64,000 bases of DNA from a candidate division TM6 bacterium UASB340. GTDB taxonomy: Bacteria; Babelota; Babeliae; Babelales; UASB340. The notes beneath the pieces were generated by a model. It worked only from the letters and a program-made list of their open reading frames with translations. It had not been told where the DNA came from and searched no databases. Positions 2,254 to 26,246 of the stretch are shown here, piece by piece. The stretch is taken from positions 3,018 to 67,017 of the forward strand of contig LDIX01000003.1 of the NCBI GenBank assembly GCA_001468925.1, read 5' to 3'. The position numbers and the translations under genes are program-made. Each line of letters starts with the position of its first letter. Position 1 is the stretch's first letter.

Positions 2254-2389
2254 CCAGTCTTATTAAAACTATAACCCAAAGCTTTCGCATTGGGCTACCA
2301 TAATATCGCATTGCATTCGCAACGCTACTCGAATTTTTATAATTTATATATTTTTTACAAATCCAATATTGGCCTGCCAGCCGACCTGT

Positions 2390-2414
2390 CCGTCGAAGCC
2401 TTGTGCGAAGACGG
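2390..2414 (-). repeat. GC-rich trailer hairpin, copy 1 (RNA sense CCGUC-UUC-GC-ACAAG-GC-UUC-GACGG)
   Basis: Lies in the GC-rich block 2369..2434, 3' of tRNA-Ala(CGC). An outer stem CCAGCC (2377-2382)/GGCTGG (2429-2434) includes the tRNA CCA complement. Confidence 0.6.
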
Positions 2415-2431
2415 AAGCCTCGTGCGTAGGC

Positions 2432-2507
2432 TGGTGGAGATGAGCGGAGTCGAACCGCTGGCCTTTCGCGTGCGATGCGAACGCTCTACCAACTGAGCTA
2501 CACCCCC
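2432..2507 (-). tRNA. tRNA-Ala (anticodon CGC)
   Basis: Manual cloverleaf of the reverse complement GGGGGTGTAGCTCAGTTGGTAGAGCGTTCGCATCGCACGCGAAAGGCCAGCGGTTCGACTCCGCTCATCTCCACCA. G3:U70 Ala identity pair, anticodon loop AT-CGC-AC, GTTCGACTC T-arm, encoded CCA. Confidence 0.9.
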
Positions 2508-2522
2508 GGAAATTATACTTAC

Positions 2523-2558
2523 AAAAAAACCACTGCGCTAACAGTGGTTAAATTTTTT
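2523..2558. terminator. Bidirectional intrinsic terminator (AACCACTG-cgctaa-CAGTGGTT, flanked by an A-run and a T-run)
   Basis: 8-bp stem. On the minus strand it reads AACCACUGUUAGCGCAGUGGUUUUUUU, downstream of tRNA-Ala(UGC). Confidence 0.6.
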
Positions 2559-2594
2559 ATTGGCTTATAAATTTTTTATAGATTGCTGGTCCGC

Positions 2595-2618
2595 CACACA
2601 TAGCCTTGGCGAAGTATG
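2595..2618 (-). repeat. GC-rich trailer hairpin, copy 2 (RNA sense CAUAC-UUC-GCC-AA-GGC-UAU-GUGUG)
   Basis: Starts inside the CCA of tRNA-Ala(UGC). Same architecture as the other copies, with a U-G wobble in the outer stem. Confidence 0.55.
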
Positions 2619-2692
2619 GTGGAGGTAAGCGGATTCGAACCGCTGGCCTTCCGCGTGCAAAGCGGACGCTCTACCAACTGAGCTATACCCCC
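2617..2692 (-). tRNA. tRNA-Ala (anticodon UGC)
   Basis: Reverse complement GGGGGTATAGCTCAGTTGGTAGAGCGTCCGCTTTGCACGCGGAAGGCCAGCGGTTCGAATCCGCTTACCTCCACCA. G3:U70 pair, anticodon loop TT-TGC-AC, encoded CCA. Confidence 0.92.
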
Positions 2693-2717
2693 GAAAATTT
2701 CAAATTTTCTGGCCTGT

Positions 2718-2741
2718 CATACGAAGCTTTAGCGAAGTATG
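2718..2741 (-). repeat. GC-rich trailer hairpin, copy 3 (RNA sense CAUAC-UUC-GC-UAAA-GC-UUC-GUAUG)
   Basis: 24-mer identical to 14350..14373. The first two nt are the CA of the tRNA-Ile CCA end. Confidence 0.65.
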
Positions 2742-2816
2742 GTGGGCCTAAGTAGACTCGAACTACTGACCTCTCCGTTATCAGCGGAGTGCTCTAACCA
2801 ACTGAGCTATAGGCCC
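2740..2816 (-). tRNA. tRNA-Ile (anticodon GAU)
   Basis: Reverse complement GGGCCTATAGCTCAGTTGGTTAGAGCACTCCGCTGATAACGGAGAGGTCAGTAGTTCGAGTCTACTTAGGCCCACCA. Perfect 7-bp acceptor stem, anticodon loop CT-GAT-AA, encoded CCA. Confidence 0.92.
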
Positions 2817-10294: not shown

Positions 10295-10381
10295 GCCGAA
10301 GTGGCGGAATTGGCAGACGCGCTAGATTCAGGGTCTAGTCTTTGAAAAAAGGTAGGGGTTCAACTCCCCTCTTCGGCACCA
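10295..10381 (+). tRNA. tRNA-Leu (anticodon CAG)
   Basis: GCCGAAGTGGCGGAATTGGCAGACGCGCTAGATTCAGGGTCTAGTCTTTGAAAAAAGGTAGGGGTTCAACTCCCCTCTTCGGCACCA. Perfect acceptor stem GCCGAAG/CTTCGGC, long variable arm, encoded CCA. It starts the nucleotide after the epimerase TAA. Confidence 0.92.
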
Positions 10382-10396
10382 GTCTTCGCCCTATAG

Positions 10397-10700
10397 CCCA
10401 GCGCATATCCAGCCTTCGCCGAGGCTACGGCGGACAGGCGCACAGGGCTACCTCAAAATCGCCCGCTCATGCAGGCTCAAAAAACAAAAATTTAATATTA
10501 ATTTGCAAGAATTGTATTTTTGTTTTCAAAAAATTTGATAATAAAGCTTTGCATACAAATAGTTACTTTTTATATAAGATTACACAATTAATGTTTGGTT
10601 TATAGAATATTACTTACATATAAAAATAATTATTCATCATAATGTCTCTGAGCCTGCATAAGCAGGCGGCTTTAGGGTAGCCCTGTGCGTATGCACTGGG
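10397..10700. repeat. MITE-like composite element: GC-rich terminal inverted repeats around a 169-bp AT-rich core
   Basis: Arm 10439..10479 matches the reverse complement of arm 10649..10689 at 34/41 positions by my hand alignment. The outer flanks CCCAGCGCATA (10397-) and the reverse complement of 10690-10700 (CCCAGTGCATA) extend the repeat. The left arm carries an extra 31-nt hairpin module. Confidence 0.55.
10410..10433 (+). repeat. GC-rich hairpin, copy 4 (CAGCC-UUC-GCC-GA-GGC-UAC-GGCGG)
   Basis: Near-identical to the tRNA-Ala(UGC) trailer: CCAGCCUUCGCCGAGGCUACGGCGGACAGG versus CCAUACUUCGCCAAGGCUAUGUGUGGCGGACCAG. Confidence 0.55.
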
Positions 10701-14273: not shown

Positions 14274-14302
14274 CCCTACTACGCTATTCGAGCTACAAAG
14301 GG
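14274..14302 (+). repeat. GC-rich hairpin, copy 6, plus-sense (CCCU-AC-UAC-GC-UAUUCGA-GC-UAC-AA-AGGG)
   Basis: Same layout of stem, 3x3 internal loop, GC clamp and loop. It is immediately followed by CATACTTCGCG (14303-), a half-copy of the trailer motif. Confidence 0.4.
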
Positions 14303-14349
14303 CATACTTCGCGCTCAACTTATTTAAATATCACTTTTTCTGGCCATGC

Positions 14350-14373
14350 CATACGAAGCTTTAGCGAAGTATG
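14350..14373 (-). repeat. GC-rich trailer hairpin, copy 5 (identical 24-mer to 2718..2741)
   Basis: CATACGAAGCTTTAGCGAAGTATG abuts and overlaps the CCA of tRNA-Leu(UAA). Confidence 0.65.
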
Positions 14374-14459
14374 GTGCCGAGGGCCGGAGTCGAACCGGCA
14401 CAGGTTTAAAACCCGAGGGATTTTAAGTCCCTTGCGTCTACCAATTCCGCCACCACGGC
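14372..14459 (-). tRNA. tRNA-Leu (anticodon UAA)
   Basis: Reverse complement GCCGTGGTGGCGGAATTGGTAGACGCAAGGGACTTAAAATCCCTCGGGTTTTAAACCTGTGCCGGTTCGACTCCGGCCCTCGGCACCA. Class II long variable arm, anticodon loop CT-TAA-AA. One U-U mismatch in the acceptor stem. Confidence 0.85.
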
Positions 14460-14529
14460 ACACATTAAACACTTAATATTATGTATATTTTTTCAATATT
14501 AGCAACATTTTTTTTAAAAAAGTGAAGAC

Positions 14530-14603
14530 TGGAGGCGGCACCCGGAATTGAACCGGGGATAACGGTTTTGCAGACCGCTGCCTTACCACTTGGCTATGCC
14601 GCC
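14530..14603 (-). tRNA. tRNA-Cys (anticodon GCA)
   Basis: Reverse complement GGCGGCATAGCCAAGTGGTAAGGCAGCGGTCTGCAAAACCGTTATCCCCGGTTCAATTCCGGGTGCCGCCTCCA. Perfect acceptor stem, U73 discriminator (a Cys identity element), encoded CCA. It starts the nucleotide after the miaB TAA. Confidence 0.92.
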
Positions 14604-16108: not shown

Positions 16109-16936
16109 TTAATTTAAATTAAATTCAATATATTGTGCATTTTCAATAATTTCATCTTTACTTAATCCCGACTTTTTTATACGCTCACTTGTGATTAATT
16201 TATTTAAAGATGTTCTAGAAAACAATGCTCTATGAATGTCGTCACCCATAGATATTGCTATTCCTTCTAATTTATAAAAATAATAAAACCAAATCTCATT
16301 TAATGTATTAGTATCGATTATATTTGAATGACAATTTCCAACCATATCTTCGATTATAAAATCAACCAAATCTTCAAGAGAACTATCGTCTTTTTTAAAT
16401 TTTTCATAATTTATTACAAACAACTGACAAAAAGTCACAAATAATGGATCTATAGCTCCAAAACTTGTATATTCTTTTTTAGCAATTTGTAAAACTTTTT
16501 CATTCAACTCTTCTATGTCTGTTCCATAATATTCATCATCTGCAAAAACTTGAGTAAATTCTTCTTTATTAAAATCTATTTTTTCAAAATTTTCATTTTC
16601 AGATTCAGAATTATAATTCTCAGGCTCACCCAAATCTTGGCCATAAAAAGTTTTACTTCTTTGTATTTTCCCAAATTTTGTTTTATTTGTTTGCAAATAA
16701 TCTTTTTCAACATCATCAGAAGATGATTCACTAAATTCATTTTTTTCTTCAGGAAGCTCACAAGATTCTACAAGCAGATTTATTCTTTTTTTATAATCTT
16801 GCGACGGTGTTGATTTCCTACCTGTTTCTGCTTTACGCTTTTCAAGTTTTTTTCTCATCATAGAATAGCTGTCTGTTGAAATAAAAAGACTTACAGCTAC
16901 TGCTAATAAAATTATTTTTTTATTTAAAATATTCAT
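16109..16936 (-). CDS. Secreted hypothetical protein, acidic (275 aa from the second ATG)
   Basis: Signal-peptide-like MNILNKKIILLAVAVSLFISTDSYS. Leader AATAAATGGAGATTTTTATGAA is shared with neighbouring genes. The track start at 16948 is an in-frame alternative. Confidence 0.55.
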   Translation of the reverse strand: MNILNKKIILLAVAVSLFISTDSYSMMRKKLEKRKAETGRKSTPSQDYKKRINLLVESCELPEEKNEFSESSSDDVEKDYLQTNKTKFGKIQRSKTFYGQDLGEPENYNSESENENFEKIDFNKEEFTQVFADDEYYGTDIEELNEKVLQIAKKEYTSFGAIDPLFVTFCQLFVINYEKFKKDDSSLEDLVDFIIEDMVGNCHSNIIDTNTLNEIWFYYFYKLEGIAISMGDDIHRALFSRTSLNKLITSERIKKSGLSKDEIIENAQYIEFNLN

Positions 16937-17057
16937 AAAAATCTCCATTTATTAATTTAATTAATTTTAAAAATTAATCAGAATCACTATCTTTACTAAA
17001 TTTTTTATACTGCTAAAAACCAAATATTAGTATTTTTTCACAGTTGTTTAAAAGAAA

Positions 17058-17450
17058 CTATTGATTTTCAGAATCTTTATTTTCCAATTCTTTATTCATA
17101 TCTTCTTTTATTTTATTAAACATATCCAAAAAATTTTTACATTCTTCAGGACATTCTTCATCATCACTTAATGAAAATTCATTGCCATACTCTGGCCATG
17201 TTTTATTTAAATCTTGTTTATCTGTTTTATAAAAAGTTTTTTTACGATTTTCAATTTCATCAATATCTATACTTTCTTTGAGTCTACTATTTTTAACAAT
17301 TTTACCAATATTACTTATTTTTTTTCTGCGTTCAAAATTTTGATTTTCATTTTCAGAATTGTTCATTGCACAAATTATAGAAAAAGTAAAAAATTCCAAA
17401 AAGATAAATCCAAATATTTTTTTATTAAATTTGATAAAATACCCCACCAA
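17058..17450 (-). CDS. Small secreted Lys/Glu/Asn-rich hypothetical protein, paralogue of 17468..17830
   Basis: Hydrophobic N-terminus KKIFGFIFLEFFTFSIICA. IDEIENRKKTFYK parallels IDEILNRKNRFGK in the neighbour. The start is uncertain: TTG at 17450 or GTG at 17447, and ATC at 17435 occupies the position where the paralogues have ATG. Confidence 0.45.
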   Translation of the reverse strand: MVGYFIKFNKKIFGFIFLEFFTFSIICAMNNSENENQNFERRKKISNIGKIVKNSRLKESIDIDEIENRKKTFYKTDKQDLNKTWPEYGNEFSLSDDEECPEECKNFLDMFNKIKEDMNKELENKDSENQ

Positions 17451-17467
17451 GCTTTAAGTTAATTTTT

Positions 17468-17830
17468 TTAATTTTTCCATTTTTTTACTTTTTTAGGATC
17501 AAGCAGTTCAGGATCAAAAGACTCTTCTTTTTTACCAAATCTATTTTTTCTATTTAAAATCTCATCTATAGTAGTTTTTGGTTTTTGCTCATCTTGAACA
17601 CTTTCAAACCTACTTTTTTTTGTTTTGTTATTTTTTTCATTAGTTTTATCTTCAATAGTTTTTTCTTCAGTTTCAGTATTCAATCTATAAAATGATTCAA
17701 ATTTTTTTTGTTTCTCTTCCCATTTTTTACTTATTTTTAGTAATTCTTTCATACTATCCATAGCAAAAGCATTGCCATAAATAGCTAGCCCAAAGACAAA
17801 AAAAACTATTTTTATATTTAAAATTTTCAT
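17468..17830 (-). CDS. Small secreted Lys/Glu-rich hypothetical protein
   Basis: Leader ATAAATGGGGGTTTTATGAAA. Signal peptide MKILNIKIVFFVFGLAIYGNAFA. Confidence 0.5.
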   Translation of the reverse strand: MKILNIKIVFFVFGLAIYGNAFAMDSMKELLKISKKWEEKQKKFESFYRLNTETEEKTIEDKTNEKNNKTKKSRFESVQDEQKPKTTIDEILNRKNRFGKKEESFDPELLDPKKVKKWKN

Positions 17831-17855
17831 AAAACCCCCATTTATATTTTTTAAT

Positions 17856-18722
17856 TTAATCATTTAATTGAATAATATTTCTTATATTTATTAAACGTGG
17901 CAAAATATTTATTCTCGTATTTGAAATATCTATTCGTCTAACATTCCTTAAATTCCACGGTATAAATTCCAAATTTCTGTTATCTGACAAATCCAAAGAT
18001 TGTAATGTATTAATATTTTCCAACACTTCCAAAGAGTTATCATGCTGCATAAATATTCTATTTCTAAAATTTCTATTAAAATAATATAAATTATTATTAG
18101 ATAAATTTATTCTTATCAATCCGTTTAATTCATCAAAATTTTCAGGTAAATATGTTATTCTATTTCCACTTAAATCAAGATTCTGTAACCCACGTCTAAT
18201 TAAACGCTGAATATACGGAACCAAAATTTCCAGCTGTCTTGAATTTAAATTAAAATTTGAAAGATTTAATAACCTTGCACCCTGATCATATCGCTCTATT
18301 ACCAGAGCTACATTATCTAAATAATCTATATCTAAATTCTGCATAATCCAATTTAAAGATGAATACCAATTACCTTGAAATCTAAACCACCAGGTATTCC
18401 AAGTAAAAGATAATCCACGATTACCCGGCAATACATTTTGTTGATATTCATCTGAGAAAAAAACCAATCTTGCCAAATCTTGATCTGTAAAATTAATGCG
18501 CTCTGGAGCTATAAGCCCAAAGTCGAATAGATCTGGAGTAACATTGATTTGTCCCAAAAAAGCTTGTCTCTGTTCTAAATTAAACGCTCTTTGTTGCTCT
18601 CTTCGCTCTAAAAGTTCTGTTGCAGTTATAAAACCGTTATTAAGATTATTAAGCGCTGATAAATTTAATATGCAAAAAAAGCCTAAAATAAAAAATTTCA
18701 CTTTTTTATCAAAAAATTTCAT
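17856..18722 (-). CDS. Secreted leucine-rich-repeat (LRR) protein
   Basis: Signal peptide MKFFDKKVKFFILGFFCILNLSA. Repeats of the LxxLxLxxNxL type (LQNLDLSGNRITYLPENF, LIRINLSNNNLYYF, LQSLDLSDNRNLEFIP). Confidence 0.8.
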   Translation of the reverse strand: MKFFDKKVKFFILGFFCILNLSALNNLNNGFITATELLERREQQRAFNLEQRQAFLGQINVTPDLFDFGLIAPERINFTDQDLARLVFFSDEYQQNVLPGNRGLSFTWNTWWFRFQGNWYSSLNWIMQNLDIDYLDNVALVIERYDQGARLLNLSNFNLNSRQLEILVPYIQRLIRRGLQNLDLSGNRITYLPENFDELNGLIRINLSNNNLYYFNRNFRNRIFMQHDNSLEVLENINTLQSLDLSDNRNLEFIPWNLRNVRRIDISNTRINILPRLINIRNIIQLND

Positions 18723-18866
18723 AAAATCTCCATTTATATTTATTTATATTTAACTAAATTAAACACTAAGTAAATTATGACACATAAGAAAACATTTACA
18801 AATGGAAATAAGTAATAGCCTAAAAACAGTATTTTTAGGTGAAAAAACACGTTTTTTACTTAAAAA

Positions 18867-19151
18867 TCAATCAAATGATCGCATTAAATCCATTAATTCA
18901 TATGATTCCGATTCAGTTTTTAGACCGGATTGTTTGGATTTTATTTTTTTAAAATTAGGAATAGATAAAGATCTTTTAATTTCATCTAATTCTTTTTTAC
19001 TCATATTTTCGAATATTTTTTTAAGTATTGTGGCTTCATTATCGTCTGGATTATTTATGACACTTTTTGAACGATCCATACAATTTGACCTAAAACCAAC
19101 AAAAATCGCTAAAAATGCATAAAAATATATAGTTTTTATTAAAATTTTCAT
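18867..19151 (-). CDS. Small secreted hypothetical protein (94 aa from the internal ATG)
   Basis: GGAGTTTTATGAAAATT leader. Signal-like MKILIKTIYFYAFLAIFVGFRSNC. The track start at 19235 adds 28 unlikely residues. Confidence 0.45.
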   Translation of the reverse strand: MKILIKTIYFYAFLAIFVGFRSNCMDRSKSVINNPDDNEATILKKIFENMSKKELDEIKRSLSIPNFKKIKSKQSGLKTESESYELMDLMRSFD

Positions 19152-19284
19152 AAAACTCCAAAATTTTTGTGTGTTTATTTTCAAGAAATACCAAAAAACG
19201 AACTTATATGGTACGTTTTTTTGCAAAAAAATCAATATTTTTTATACTTAGAAAATATAAAAAAATTATAAATAAGAGGTAAAA

Positions 19285-22310: not shown

Positions 22311-23456
22311 TTATACAGCAATCCCACGTTTTTTAAGACTCTTTTGAGAATAAAAGATTCTTTTACTTTGTTCAAGCGCCTCTTTTTGCAAAAGATAATA
22401 AAAAAACTCACGATCAGGGCCTTTAACAACTGCAGCTTCATGAGCTTGAGCTAAAACTACCGGATAACCCATCCCCTTTTCAACCTGATCAAGAGCAATA
22501 GATGCAATAAAATCAAGTTTACTACTATCATTTACAATCCATGAAAAAGTTTCAACACGAATAATCTCTTTTTCCGTATTTAAATAAAAAAAACATGGTT
22601 TTAGATGTTCCGGATAAGAATCTACAATTTTAGATTTACTAAAAAAAATAGTTGATCGATAATTTTTTGGTAAAAAAAATTTTGTAACCTGTGAATCTAT
22701 TAAACTATCAACAACTTTACATGGAAAATCGTTATAAATCCTGTGACATGATATGCATTCTGCATAATCGAATCGACACAATCCAAGCTTTATAAGATTT
22801 ACAAGCTCACGACTTTTTGGAAAACTTATAACTCCTGCAATTAGCTTATTTTGTTCATAAAATTTATTTAAAATATTTATATATAAATTCAAAAAAAAAT
22901 TTTTAACTTCATCTACTTTGCCTTCCAACGGCCAAAAAATTACAGTTCCATCAACTAATGATAAATCAATATTGTTTTCTACTGACAACTCAAGTAAACG
23001 CGAAAGCTCTAATTCTTCACGCTTAAAATCTACCAAATCTTGAGAAAAAGAAATTTTCTCATTTTTATCAATAAGCTTTTGTGTTAAAAAAAGTTTAGGT
23101 TCTGAATAAAATTTAACTTCACTTTTGTCAGAATATTTTATACTACACCCACCAATATTTATTAAAAAGCATCCGGCTCCGGATATGTTTCTGTCAGGAT
23201 ATATTTGGGATCCATCGATTGCAATAACAGAATAATCTGTTTCAATTTTATTAACCTTAAAAATATTAGATAAATTATTTTGCCAAGATGGCAACAGAAA
23301 ACTACTTTTTGATAACTCAACCTTTTCTTTAAAATTATCTTGATTGGATATTTTGTCCCAAGTTTTTTGTGCTATATCAGACTCATAAGCCAAATTGGGA
23401 AAAAGCTTTTCTGAAACTTTTTTAAATTCTATTAAAAGACTATTTTTATTAAGCAT
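22311..23456 (-). CDS. NurA-like nuclease domain protein (tentative)
   Basis: VIAIDGSQIYPD and LSLVDGTVIFWP resemble the two Asp-bearing DGS/DGT motifs of NurA. The C-terminal GYPVVLAQAHEAAVV resembles the YP..L..A(D/H) motif. Both judged from memory. Confidence 0.45.
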   Translation of the reverse strand: MLNKNSLLIEFKKVSEKLFPNLAYESDIAQKTWDKISNQDNFKEKVELSKSSFLLPSWQNNLSNIFKVNKIETDYSVIAIDGSQIYPDRNISGAGCFLINIGGCSIKYSDKSEVKFYSEPKLFLTQKLIDKNEKISFSQDLVDFKREELELSRLLELSVENNIDLSLVDGTVIFWPLEGKVDEVKNFFLNLYINILNKFYEQNKLIAGVISFPKSRELVNLIKLGLCRFDYAECISCHRIYNDFPCKVVDSLIDSQVTKFFLPKNYRSTIFFSKSKIVDSYPEHLKPCFFYLNTEKEIIRVETFSWIVNDSSKLDFIASIALDQVEKGMGYPVVLAQAHEAAVVKGPDREFFYYLLQKEALEQSKRIFYSQKSLKKRGIAV

Positions 23457-24193: not shown

Positions 24194-24829
24194 CTAATTT
24201 TGATTGTTTCGATAGATAAAAAATTGACCCAAAAACACTAAATTTACCAAAATTCCACGAAAATTGTTCACAATTAGAGGTATTGGTATATTCAAAAGAA
24301 AATTTGCCGAAATTTCACAAAAATTAGCGCTAAGAGATATTAAAATAAAATAAAAACTAAAACCATGTACTGACTTATTTCTGTAAATTTTAAATATTTG
24401 CGGTAATTTTTTCCAAAAGCCAATTCCCACAGGAATCCATCCAATTAAATATGCATAGGAATAAAATTTAAAATATATTAAGTAACCAATAAAAAACAAA
24501 ATAAATATATTTAAAATAAAAATAGAAAAAAATTTTATTTCTTTATCCAAATTATTCTGAGAATATTTAAATCGTTGAAATATAATAAAGCTAACTAAAA
24601 ACGTATAGATTATATTAATTATTTTATAACCAATTGGTAAATTGTTTGCAAAGCTATAAATAAGATAAAAATAACCGGAATTTAGTAATGTCAAAATAAA
24701 AACAGTACTAAGACCATTTGTAGATTTTATTTTATAATTCAATAAAATTTGTGGTATAAGACTCGAAATAAAAAATAAATTAGAAACAATAATTAAAAAA
24801 TTTGCTAAAAATATTTTGTTTAAAAGCAT
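24194..24829 (-). CDS. 7-TM PQ-loop repeat transporter, paralogue 1
   Basis: Two PQ-loop motifs: LIPQILLNYKIKSTNGLS and KLPQIFKIYRNKSVHGFS. About 7 hydrophobic segments. Confidence 0.8.
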   Translation of the reverse strand: MLLNKIFLANFLIIVSNLFFISSLIPQILLNYKIKSTNGLSTVFILTLLNSGYFYLIYSFANNLPIGYKIINIIYTFLVSFIIFQRFKYSQNNLDKEIKFFSIFILNIFILFFIGYLIYFKFYSYAYLIGWIPVGIGFWKKLPQIFKIYRNKSVHGFSFYFILISLSANFCEISANFLLNIPIPLIVNNFRGILVNLVFLGQFFIYRNNQN

Positions 24830-24831
24830 GC

Positions 24832-25524
24832 TTAATCTTGCTTAACTTCCAAAGGTAATAATTCCGGTTTATCTAAAATATAGTTGTGTCTAAATTTATA
24901 ATTCCAAAATTGAAAAATAAATATGAAATATACTAACACACCTCTGGATGCAATCAAGTGCGTTTGCAATGGAAGATTCAATAAATATGCAGCAAACCAA
25001 TCAATCATATTTCCAATTCCTACAAAAGATACTAAAAAAAAGCTAAACCCTTCGACAGATTTAGTCCTTTGTATCTTTAATAACTGAGGAATTTGATAGA
25101 CTGACCATATTATAACCAAAGCCCAACCAATGATATGCCCGGCAATAATTGGGTTTAAATTTAAAATAAAAGATACAAAAATTAAAAATAAAAAATTATA
25201 TAAATACATATTTTTTATTTTAGTATTCAAACTATCGCGACCATATAAAAATCTTTGATAAACCAAAATAGATATTACAAATAATGCCAAAGTCGATCTA
25301 ATTTTATAAGCTAAATGAAAATTTAAAGAGAACATGTATAAAACATTAAAAACATAACCGTCAAAATAAAACATTATATAGAGGTCACTCAAGCCTCTTA
25401 TTGATTTATTTTTGTAATTTAAATAAACCTGAGGCCAAACAGCAAGAACAAAGAAAATATTGACAACCCAGGTGATTATGGTTGTCAATAATGAAGCGTT
25501 AGTCACTTTGGCCCCCCAAGACAA
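24832..25524 (-). CDS. 7-TM PQ-loop repeat transporter, paralogue 2
   Basis: VWPQVYLNYKNKSIRGLS and QIPQLLKIQRTKSVEGFS. TTG start with an AGGGAAG RBS. Its stop is 2 nt before the paralogue 1 ATG. Confidence 0.8.
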   Translation of the reverse strand: MSWGAKVTNASLLTTIITWVVNIFFVLAVWPQVYLNYKNKSIRGLSDLYIMFYFDGYVFNVLYMFSLNFHLAYKIRSTLALFVISILVYQRFLYGRDSLNTKIKNMYLYNFLFLIFVSFILNLNPIIAGHIIGWALVIIWSVYQIPQLLKIQRTKSVEGFSFFLVSFVGIGNMIDWFAAYLLNLPLQTHLIASRGVLVYFIFIFQFWNYKFRHNYILDKPELLPLEVKQD

Positions 25525-25646
25525 CTTTTACTTCCCTAAAAATTTTCCCCCTCACAATGGTAGTATAAAATTTATCCATATTTAAAAACAAGTTTTTTTA
25601 TTTTTTAATATTTTACTTTTAAATAAATGGTTTTTAGTAATTTTAA

Positions 25647-26246
25647 TTATTTAAATTTAATAAACTGTAACAAATAAATCAAATATACAAAAATACCATT
25701 TAAATTATTCAGATAAGTTTGCGGCGGTAACCCCAAAAAAAGAGCTACTATAAATTCAACAAAATTACCAAAACCAATCATAGAAACCAATCCAAAGCTT
25801 AGACCTTTTATAGATCTATTTTGATAATTTTTAAATAATTGAGGAATTTGATAAATTGCCCAAATCAGCATCATTATCCAACCGGAAGCATGTCCAACAA
25901 AAAAACTATTTTTTATAGATAAAAATAATAAAAATATAAAAAACAAAATACTAAATATAAAGAAAATTTTAAAACCTATATCTTTTGATTCAGAATAATA
26001 AAATCTTTGAAAAACTAATGTTAAAACAGCAAAAAATGCAAGCGGCACCATAATCTTATGAGCTAGCGGCAAATTAAGACAAAAAACATAAAACATGTAA
26101 AAACTGTAACCGTAAAAATAGCCTATAAATAAAAAATCGCTCAAACCTTTGGTTGATTTTCGATTAAAATTAAGCCTAATTTGAGGCAAAAGCCCAAAAA
26201 AGAATATGATTTGTGCTATCCATGGAAAAAAATTATTAAAATTCAT
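25647..26246 (-). CDS. 7-TM PQ-loop repeat transporter, paralogue 3
   Basis: LLPQIRLNFNRKSTKGLS and QIPQLFKNYQNRSIKGLS. I mapped seven hydrophobic segments by eye. Confidence 0.8.
   Translation of the reverse strand: MNFNNFFPWIAQIIFFFGLLPQIRLNFNRKSTKGLSDFLFIGYFYGYSFYMFYVFCLNLPLAHKIMVPLAFFAVLTLVFQRFYYSESKDIGFKIFFIFSILFFIFLLFLSIKNSFFVGHASGWIMMLIWAIYQIPQLFKNYQNRSIKGLSFGLVSMIGFGNFVEFIVALFLGLPPQTYLNNLNGIFVYLIYLLQFIKFK

Follow-up and report, generated by a model that had tools for sequence, protein, structure and literature searches.

tRNA genes and hairpin modules of the window

The window analysed here is a stretch of 64 kb from contig LDIX01000003.1 of the candidate division TM6 bacterium UASB340 (GCA_001468925.1), and the element in question is a short GC-rich hairpin module found within 60 nt after most of its tRNA genes. 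The G+C content of the window is 28.6%, and its asparaginyl-tRNA synthetase (AsnRS) shares 97% identity with a protein recorded under the name 'Candidatus Dependentiae bacterium' and is 83% identical to that of candidate division TM6 GW2011_GWF2_28_16. Six tRNA genes were identified by ARAGORN and Rfam, the CCA end being encoded in every one: tRNA-Ile(GAU) (2740-2816), tRNA-Ala(UGC) (2617-2692), tRNA-Ala(CGC) (2432-2507, with a TATAAT box just 5' of it), tRNA-Leu(UAA) (14372-14459) and tRNA-Cys(GCA) (14530-14603) on the minus strand, and tRNA-Leu(CAG) (10295-10381) on the plus strand. Five related hairpin modules are found on the tRNA-sense strand, 0-60 nt 3' of five of these six tRNAs, and none elsewhere in the 64 kb; the 60-nt zone 3' of the tRNAs on the same strand, which represents about 0.3% of strand positions, holds all five. 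These hairpins (2718-2741, 14350-14373, 2595-2618, 2390-2414 and 10410-10433) had been described in an earlier note on this DNA, and their positions and strand were confirmed, as were the identical 24-mer CATACTTCGCTAAAGCTTCGTATG after tRNA-Ile (2718-2741) and tRNA-Leu(UAA) (14350-14373) and the involvement of the encoded CCA in the stem, which begins at C75 in three copies.

Module 1 is fused to the CCA of tRNA-Ile (2709-2742, minus strand; 45.9 bits with the covariance model R1 presented below, and recovered in the predicted fold), and its hairpin CATAC-TTC-GC-TAAA-GC-TTC-GTATG (2718-2741), continued by the tail ACAGGCCAG, takes up most of the 47-nt Ile-Ala spacer. Module 2 is fused in the same manner to the CCA of tRNA-Ala(UGC) (2586-2619, minus strand; 41.9 bits; predicted fold of -13.5 kcal/mol) and consists of the hairpin CATAC-TTC-GCC-AA-GGC-TAT-GTGTG (2595-2618) and the tail GCGGACCAG. 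The module fused to the CCA of tRNA-Leu(UAA) (14341-14374, minus strand, hairpin 14350-14373; 42.9 bits and predicted fold) ends in the tail GCATGGCCAG and has an inverted partner (14274-14312, minus strand), in which GCGAAGTATG (14303-14312), the reverse complement of CATACTTCGC, adjoins an antisense-oriented module CCCTTTGTAGC…GCGTAGTAGGG (14274-14302).

The trailer of tRNA-Ala(CGC) is composite (2377-2434, minus strand; predicted fold and alignment with the close relative L001). Its outer module reads CCAGCC-TAC-GC-ACGAG-GC-TTC…GGCTGG, and the 3' strand of this module is displaced by a nested canonical module (2381-2415, minus strand, hairpin 2390-2414; 45 bits, matching the consensus), TTCCGTC-TTC-GC-ACAAG-GC-TTC-GACGG-ACAGGTCGG, inserted at CTTC|GG of the outer one and agreeing with the cross-phylum consensus given below, TTCC and ACAGGTCG included. 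The outer helix CCAGCC/GGCTGG (2429-2434 with 2377-2382), already proposed in the earlier note, appears in the predicted fold, where it encloses the second module; for the 87-nt stretch 2350-2436, which contains the composite trailer, the predicted fold reaches -25.9 kcal/mol. On the plus strand, the CCA of tRNA-Leu(CAG) bears a solo 5' half-module, CCAGTCTTCGCC (10379-10390), without a partner strand, at which L001 reads CCAGCCGTCGCC. It is followed by a 31-nt module (10408-10438, plus strand, hairpin 10410-10433; 37.5 bits over 10409-10442, alignment with L001 and predicted fold), TCCAGCC-TTC-GCC-GA-GGC-TAC-GGCGG-ACAGG, which carries an A·G mismatch in this copy and lies in the loop of a host hairpin formed by TAGCCC (10394-10399) and GGGCTA (10445-10450). 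Finally, tRNA-Cys is followed by the degenerate half-site CCAGTCTTCAC (14522-14532, minus strand), as had been noted, without a hairpin partner strand and with a T/A run next to it. The similarity among the modules is not limited to the hairpin and runs into the tail (G)RCANG-(G)CCAG.

Transcription termination was one of the roles first considered for these trailers. However, it is extremely unlikely that they represent intrinsic (Rho-independent) terminators of the tRNA transcription units, despite being GC-rich hairpins located directly 3' of genes, as no copy has a U tract and the tails (e.g., ACAGGCCAG…) lack a T run. Moreover, the Ile copy is found in the 47-nt spacer ahead of the next, co-transcribed tRNA, and a canonical intrinsic terminator, ACCACTG-loop-CAGTGGT followed by T7 (2523-2548, minus strand), which is kept in L001 and in a second relative, L002, lies about 37-40 nt past the Ala(UGC) copy, indicating that module 2 is not itself the terminator. 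Another such hairpin follows the Ala(CGC) block in L001.

Detection, folding and covariation

A covariance model (A1/R1) was trained on 12 copies, the window's own included, and returned exactly five sites in the window with filters off (E-values of 1e-9 to 2e-7), the next best having E>2. Since the model was trained on the window copies, the informative part of this result is that no further copies occur in the window. A loose hairpin grammar gave 6 matches in the window versus 0.8 in shuffled sequences. In Rfam, tRNAs alone reached the gathering threshold in the window, and the modules had no match even at E<=10. The small hairpins, with -5 to -13.5 kcal/mol and z-scores of about 0 to -1.8 relative to shuffles, are thermodynamically unremarkable.

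The earlier note had interpreted the differences between stems as compensatory changes that argue for selection on structure. On the one hand, stem pairing amounts to 94.8%, with four doubly changed pairs, in a hand-picked set of copies. On the other hand, the 'compensatory' stems correspond to a few recurring variants (TAC/GTA, GCC/GGC and GTC/GAC) that are found together in one genome. At the orthologous Ile site, the window presents CCATAC…GTATGG and L002 presents CCAGCC…GGCTGG, variants that co-exist within one genome, and stem changes at orthologous sites therefore need not be independent compensatory mutations. Among the matches listed in the cross-phylum scan presented below, 118 copies yielded the consensus (A/T)-YCCNCC-TTC-GC-YRAR-GC-TWC-GGNGGR-CARG, with a covarying 6-bp stem. 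The stem mismatches in these 118 copies comprised 17 of G·U type and 26 of A·C type, and the lack of a sense-strand excess of G·U over A·C means that no signature of selection on a sense-strand RNA is present. In addition, the outer stems of both Ala trailers are broken in L001.

Gain, loss and nesting of modules in close relatives

L001 (GCA_018896115.1) is syntenic with the window, its AsnRS being 97% identical and its intergenic flanks about 99% identical, and the first ten open reading frames (ORFs) of the window have homologues there in the same order, with Pfam matches to housekeeping families or none. In this nearly identical background, single modules differ in presence. The 31-nt module at 10408-10438 is found in the window and not in L001 (alignment A3, flanks about 99% identical), and modules of 31-32 nt are found only in L001 after both Ala tRNAs, where each splits the resident module between CTTC and GC; at tRNA-Ala(UGC), it is module 2 that received a 32-nt module after its CTTC. 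CTTC|GC is a recurrent point of entry into resident modules, observed twice in L001, twice in L303 and in the Ala(CGC) trailer of the window. Furthermore, the triplet that comes next to CCA differs between the window and L001, alternating among TAC, GTC and GCC, and both L001 Ala trailers have non-complementary outer strands, CAGTC…GTATG and CATAC…GGCTGG. Such broken outer strands are hard to reconcile with strict selection on that helix, and are easily explained by recombination among copies. In L002, tRNA-Ala(CGC) has only a half-site, as does tRNA-Cys of the window.

Other variable DNA is present 3' of the same tRNA genes. Between AsnRS and tRNA-Ala(CGC), a window-specific, GC-richer block of about 120 nt (2219-2345) replaces a bidirectional terminator hairpin of L001. 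It contains degenerate hairpins (CCCAA-TGCGAAAGCT-TTGGG) and reads, on the plus strand, ATCCCGGC…GCCGGGAT and then CCAGTCTT; the latter is the same 8-mer that occurs after the Cys and Leu(CAG) tRNAs, and the block resembles a 'stem + CCA + GTCTT' mimic. The repeat search also revealed, 3' of tRNA-Leu(CAG), an inverted-repeat pair (10439-10504 and 10624-10689, spanning 10439-10689) with 66-nt arms that are 73% complementary and surround a 119-nt AT-rich core. This pair is found in L001 and not in L002, and looks like a separate insertion in the same tRNA-flanking spacer, similar to a MITE (a miniature transposable element with inverted repeats). The presence of variable DNA in this position (the 2219-2345 block and the 10439-10689 element), as well as the location of the modules at tRNA 3' ends, would be expected if the trailers were scars or duplicated att sites of integrative elements that use tRNA 3' ends. 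Nevertheless, this origin is scarcely credible, considering that the trailers carry no repeat of tRNA 3' sequence beyond CCA, that an identical 24-mer follows two unrelated tRNAs, that no integrase is found nearby, and that ORFs and other phyla also contain dispersed copies.

Copies away from tRNA genes

A distribution confined to tRNA genes, on which the earlier note had staked its trailer element, was contradicted by the copies located away from tRNAs in relatives and in other phyla. In the relative L005, a copy scoring 34 bits with the covariance model lies within an ORF, just after the signal peptide (…SAKSDFAKASSDKN…), and a second, weaker copy is found in a TonB-like linker (…SSFAKATEYK…). 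When the tRNA-free pattern CTTCGCYRARGCTWYGNNNGRCANG was scanned over contigs of one genome per species, it was found at no fewer than, i.e., at least, 120 loci, versus about 17 expected by chance in an estimate that assumes uniform base composition. The matches listed include Patescibacteria (Saccharibacteria, Parcubacteria, WWE3 and others), Verrucomicrobiota, Kiritimatiellia, Planctomycetota, Omnitrophota, Acidobacteriota, Bacteroidota and Elusimicrobia, isolates of Bradyrhizobium (B. frederickii CNPSo 3426) and Cerasicoccus (C. arenae KCTC 12870), and also Babeliaceae and Dependentiae. Most of the cross-phylum copies among the matches listed are not near tRNAs, many being in-frame insertions of ten codons (…SFAKAT..K…) in housekeeping proteins, and the corresponding loci, 806 kb in total and each chosen for one match, hold 189 modules versus 35 in shuffles.

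Matches on viral contigs (IMG/VR, L007-L126) had at first been regarded as noise, which was overturned by a re-analysis showing that about half are genuine, with complementary stems in 61 of the 124 pattern matches. The element is therefore carried on putative phage or prophage DNA too. When plasmids and cultured phages were searched with the consensus by BLAST, only chance partial matches were returned.

The copies inside ORFs favour the frame xxC-TTC-GCN, reading (S/P)FAKA(T/S)xxK. In-frame copies of ten codons were found in genes of Patescibacteria for a mercuric-reductase homologue (L168), valyl-tRNA synthetase (ValRS; L181), the NAD-dependent DNA ligase LigA (L232), NusA (L194), HsdM (L167) and GrpE (L166). 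Alignment of the mercuric-reductase homologue with PDB 5x1y shows an exact ten-residue gap opposite PAFAKASAGK, which corresponds to a 30-nt insertion. No in-frame copy in a protein gene occurs within the window. Additionally, about 12% of copies are embedded in a longer, copy-specific outer palindrome (>=7 bp) versus 3% in the control, which matches the insertion of the window module at 10408-10438 into a hairpin loop. In a Babeliaceae metagenome-assembled genome (L222, 5464-5550), a head-to-tail array of CATACTTCGCTAAAGCTACGTATGGCAGGCT, one base away from the window 24-mer, is repeated with a 31-nt period, and ARAGORN predicts no tRNA within 60 nt of it.

The conservation of 30 nt across phyla raises the alternative of a conserved motif in structured RNA (or single-strand DNA) to which a protein of wide conservation binds, and in which the variable basal stems would reflect covariation rather than mobility. 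The longer outer palindrome (>=7 bp) of 12% of the copies, versus 3% in the control, and the tail, which offers an alternative hairpin, also fit such a motif. This possibility is very unlikely, given that Rfam holds no match even at E<=10, that both orientations as well as coding frames are represented among the copies, that their presence or absence differs between near-identical genomes, and that no conserved gene neighbours them.

Association with tRNA termini

The covariance model was built and the relatives were scanned along the lines proposed in the earlier note, and the enrichment of copies beside tRNAs was verified. In the cross-phylum sample, 7 of 125 copies among the matches listed lie within 3 nt of a tRNA terminus, versus about 0.05 expected from the 41 tRNAs in 806 kb. 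Four of these matches are fused to tRNA 3' ends (Leu in Opitutus, Met in Sphingomonadales, a Tyr/Thr spacer and Val in Parcubacteria), the tRNA-Tyr/tRNA-Thr spacer consisting wholly of the element, and three are fused to tRNA 5' ends, the stem borrowing the first five tRNA bases in two of them. A copy fused to a tRNA 5' end was also seen on a viral contig (L080). In Dependentiae, 25 of the 34 sense-strand modules located 3' of tRNAs start exactly at C75; the other nine lie farther 3', one of them being an AT-rich match that is probably due to chance and the rest second modules, which either come after the first or are nested in it.

In an unbiased sample of Dependentiae trailers, anchored solely on the 3' half of tRNA-Ile, the pattern CCA-NNC-TWC-GY was present in 6 of the 45 distinct trailers of tRNA-Ile and in 9 of the 45 of tRNA-Ala(UGC) (13-20%), the chance expectation being about 4e-4 per trailer. 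In one clade, whose operons are arranged as 16S-Ile-Ala-23S, the sequence CCAAAAA… is found in most Ala trailers, and two members have in its place a module and an inverted partner directly after CCA. Stems anchored on CCA had a mean of 4.37 in 109 trailers, compared with 3.87 in shuffles (maximum of 4.21 in 200) and 3.49 at genomic CCA. A CCA-sequestering hairpin general to all Dependentiae trailers was considered and set aside, as this enrichment is modest and due to the module-bearing trailers.

A second CCA in the tail (TGG-N3-8-CCA) was found in 12 of 16 tRNA-fused copies, so that the UGG of the trailer could pair with either CCA; this duplicate may be an insertion footprint or an RNA switch. 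Likewise, an A-A'-A layout, in which the 5' stem is repeated in the tail, is frequent in tRNA-fused copies alone. Sense/antisense doublets 3' of tRNAs were observed in the window (14274-14374) and in L004, L005, L252, L258, L179, L181 and L224. Retro-insertion at mature RNA ends was also considered and is unsupported, because the Parcubacteria tRNA-Val gene of L181 has no CCA after the discriminator base; its stem takes the last two acceptor-stem bases and the discriminator, which happen to read CCA. As for tRNA-Ala genes, Ala-CGC of L005 (13238-13312) and two Ala genes of L296 have neither an encoded CCA nor a module.

The most serious alternative, though an improbable one, is that the module is a dedicated tRNA 3'-trailer hairpin that sequesters the encoded CCA and guides or protects 3' maturation, for example by keeping exonucleases or RNase Z away until an endonuclease has cut, its dispersed copies being spin-offs. 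Such a role would account for the stems that include CCA and start at C75 in three copies of the window and in 25 of the 34 from Dependentiae, for the modest enrichment of CCA-anchored stems in the 109 trailers, for the orthologous Ile trailer that keeps the same layout with different stems (CCATAC…GTATGG versus CCAGCC…GGCTGG), for the second tail CCA in 12 of 16 tRNA-fused copies, which permits alternative pairing, and for the same fusion in tRNA-tRNA spacers of other phyla (L246 and L181). However, a conserved element dedicated to 3' processing, as suggested in the earlier note, is difficult to sustain when only 6/45 Ile and 9/45 Ala(UGC) trailers of the unbiased Dependentiae sample present the module, when the outer strands are non-complementary in both Ala trailers of the closest relative, L001, and when tRNA-Cys and the L002 Ala(CGC) have a half-site only. 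Moreover, hairpin stability is not above that of shuffles, the 17 G·U-type and 26 A·C-type mismatches reveal no sense-strand excess, and the unit also occurs in ORFs, at tRNA 5' ends and in antisense orientation.

A probable mobile palindromic repeat that homes to tRNA ends

The trailers are probably copies of a mobile, GC-rich, imperfect-palindrome repeat of about 30-31 nt with tRNA gene ends as preferred targets, belonging to the same class of selfish hairpins as repetitive extragenic palindromic (REP) sequences, Rickettsia palindromic elements (RPEs) and mitochondrial GC clusters. The relatedness of the copies, their gain and loss as discrete units, their nesting, their occurrence inside ORFs and in many phyla and their enrichment at tRNA termini were all observed, and it is on these features that the suggestion of a mobile repeat targeting tRNA ends, one of several made in the earlier note, prevailed. 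The unit has a stem of 5-6 bp, an internal 3x3 loop rich in pyrimidines (TTC/TWC), a GC clamp, a YRAR tetraloop and an RCARG tail, and whole units are gained or lost as DNA. Units insert flush with tRNA termini, one stem strand being contributed by the tRNA (its terminal CCA, or else its first or last bases); into resident copies at CTTC|GC or into the loops of other hairpins, generating nested and merged blocks; and in frame into protein genes. In this Dependentiae lineage, almost all copies in the sample, which is formed by the window and tRNA-centred stretches of relatives, are in tRNA 3' flanks, where they would be co-transcribed as trailers or inter-tRNA spacers and would have to be removed by 3' processing. 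Mobilisation could be provided in trans by a structure-specific enzyme acting on single-strand DNA (HUH/Y1, similar to the REP-associated tyrosine transposases, RAYTs) or could result from hairpin template switching, and a preference for the tRNA 3' end could arise because its acceptor stem + A-CCA imitates the element's own end (stem + R-CA), both steps being proposed with low confidence.

Several observations weigh against this mobile repeat. A Pfam search of 40 window ORFs revealed no transposase, reverse transcriptase or RNase, the matches being to housekeeping families or absent, and no RAYT was found among the same 40 ORFs. In an all-against-all BLAST of 2,864 ORFs from 120 loci among the matches listed, no recurrent family was found beside the copies, the most frequent being present at 4 of 120 at most. 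No target-site duplication is seen at 10408-10438 relative to L001, the sole insertion with a known empty site, and the unit, itself a single hairpin, lacks the combination of terminal inverted repeats and target-site duplication that characterises MITEs. The module is kept at tRNA-Ile across relatives with 73-97% AsnRS identity, and the first Dependentiae module is in strict register with CCA, both of which would also fit selection for an RNA function. Lastly, REP-type elements are as a rule restricted to one lineage, and sequence conservation over 30 nt across phyla, being uncommon among them, hints at a constraint beyond selfish spread.

For a mobile repeat of this kind, a secondary, co-opted RNA role of the trailers may be considered. 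A bolder proposal, which is doubtful and somewhat less probable than the dedicated trailer hairpin, is that a single 30-nt element, nearly identical at every base in Patescibacteria, Verrucomicrobiota, Dependentiae and Bradyrhizobium, homes to tRNA termini by acceptor mimicry. Its mobiliser would be a tRNA-end-recognising or structure-specific single-strand DNA/RNA enzyme and no classical transposase, and the CCA-pairing copy would have been domesticated in compact genomes as a switchable trailer, in which UGG would pair either with the tRNA CCA or with the decoy CCA of the tail to control 3' maturation.

Comparison with known systems

The module resembles REPs and the related REPINs, which are imperfect GC-rich palindromes of 20-40 nt (30-31 nt in this unit) with subfamilies that differ by complementary stem changes, which occur as singletons, inverted doublets and clusters, and which are often located 3' of genes and transcribed. 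The differences are that no conserved GTAG/CGTC tag is present here, the triplet at the position that would read GTAG on the reverse strand varying among TAC, TTC and TAT and CGTC being found in some copies only, that no RAYT or other transposase was found nearby, and that the unit is conserved across many phyla and precisely fused to tRNA termini. These last two features, cross-phylum conservation and precise fusion to tRNA termini, are what is notable in this family. Occasional in-frame, intragenic REP copies have been described in tRNA synthetase, ligase and repair genes, Verrucomicrobia included, with intragenic copies in Opitutus, and RPE-4 and RPE-6 have been equated with CGTC REPs (PMC3733652). 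The motif described here is absent from the text and supplements of that REP survey.

The module shares with RPEs the nature of a selfish palindromic repeat of an intracellular bacterium whose genome is reduced and AT-rich, as well as in-frame insertions in housekeeping ORFs. Ogata et al. reportedly described, in 2000 and 2002, RPEs of Rickettsia found in housekeeping ORFs, where they are inserted in frame, and in or beside RNA genes. Compared by length and host range, RPEs of the RPE-1 type are 100-150 bp long and Rickettsia-specific, whereas this unit has about 30 nt, is cross-phylum and is concentrated at tRNA CCA ends in this lineage.

A further likeness exists with mitochondrial GC clusters, which are GC-rich hairpins in very AT-rich genomes that nest and occur in tRNA flanks. 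In yeast mitochondria, such clusters (GC42) undergo rapid turnover, merge, nest and shuffle, and have short flanking direct repeats, AG or ACT (PMC4478555). In Neurospora mitochondria, as far as the mention in PMC4478555 conveys the original work (Yin, Heckman & RajBhandary 1981), GC-rich (PstI) palindromes flank tRNA genes. These clusters are organellar and unrelated in sequence, and no flanking repeats are present at the sole empty site here, so that the resemblance is functional and not one of homology. A processing role is said to have been proposed for the Neurospora palindromes.

The palindrome-associated transposable elements (PATEs) derived from IS200/IS605 (HUH/Y1) present imperfect hairpins with conserved mismatches, produce no target-site duplication and insert beside a short specific sequence, the idea being that target choice mirrors the element's own end. 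In the present case there is no TnpA, left and right ends are undistinguished and the unit is far smaller, which makes this a mechanistic analogy only. No published description of the element's sequence was found in the searchable literature with the strings SFAKAT, FAKATEDK and CTTCGCCAAGGCT, which leaves its unpublished status unproven; matches by topic were limited to general work on REPs, RPEs and GC clusters.

Implications

If the trailers are indeed copies of a mobile repeat, annotation of AT-rich genomes from uncultured organisms should treat GC-rich islands beside tRNAs as inserted repeats and not as new RNA genes, and ten-residue '…SFAKAT..K…' segments in proteins of the candidate phyla radiation (CPR), the Planctomycetes-Verrucomicrobia-Chlamydiae (PVC) group and other phyla would be repeat-derived insertions. 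Turnover of single units between near-identical genomes would provide a possible marker for strain-level comparison. A REP-sized family with a sequence conserved across phyla and a roughly hundred-fold preference for exact tRNA gene ends, which seems unusual, would also pose the question of its recogniser, and would constitute a natural experiment on tRNA 3' processing confronted with a hairpin that swallows the CCA end.

Other features of the window and its relatives

The Ile and Ala tRNA genes differ in their relation to the rRNA operon among relatives. In L001 (1-4462) and L005 (1229-6335), the only syntenic relatives whose stretch reaches this region, an rRNA operon lies upstream and is set apart from tRNA-Ile/Ala by the genes for an acyl-ACP synthetase-like protein and AsnRS; in another Dependentiae clade (L249-L291), the Ile and Ala genes are found within the 16S-23S spacer. 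Elsewhere in the window, a gene with a NurA nuclease domain is found at 22311-23456, and three consecutive paralogous genes for PQ-loop membrane proteins at 24194-26246. A 66-nt AT-rich direct repeat occurs four times at 16896-19176, at spacings of 894, 892 and 429 nt; its copies bound a run of small minus-strand ORFs without Pfam matches, except for weak leucine-rich repeat (LRR) matches in one of them, and this arrangement probably corresponds to a tandemly duplicated gene family with a common upstream region.

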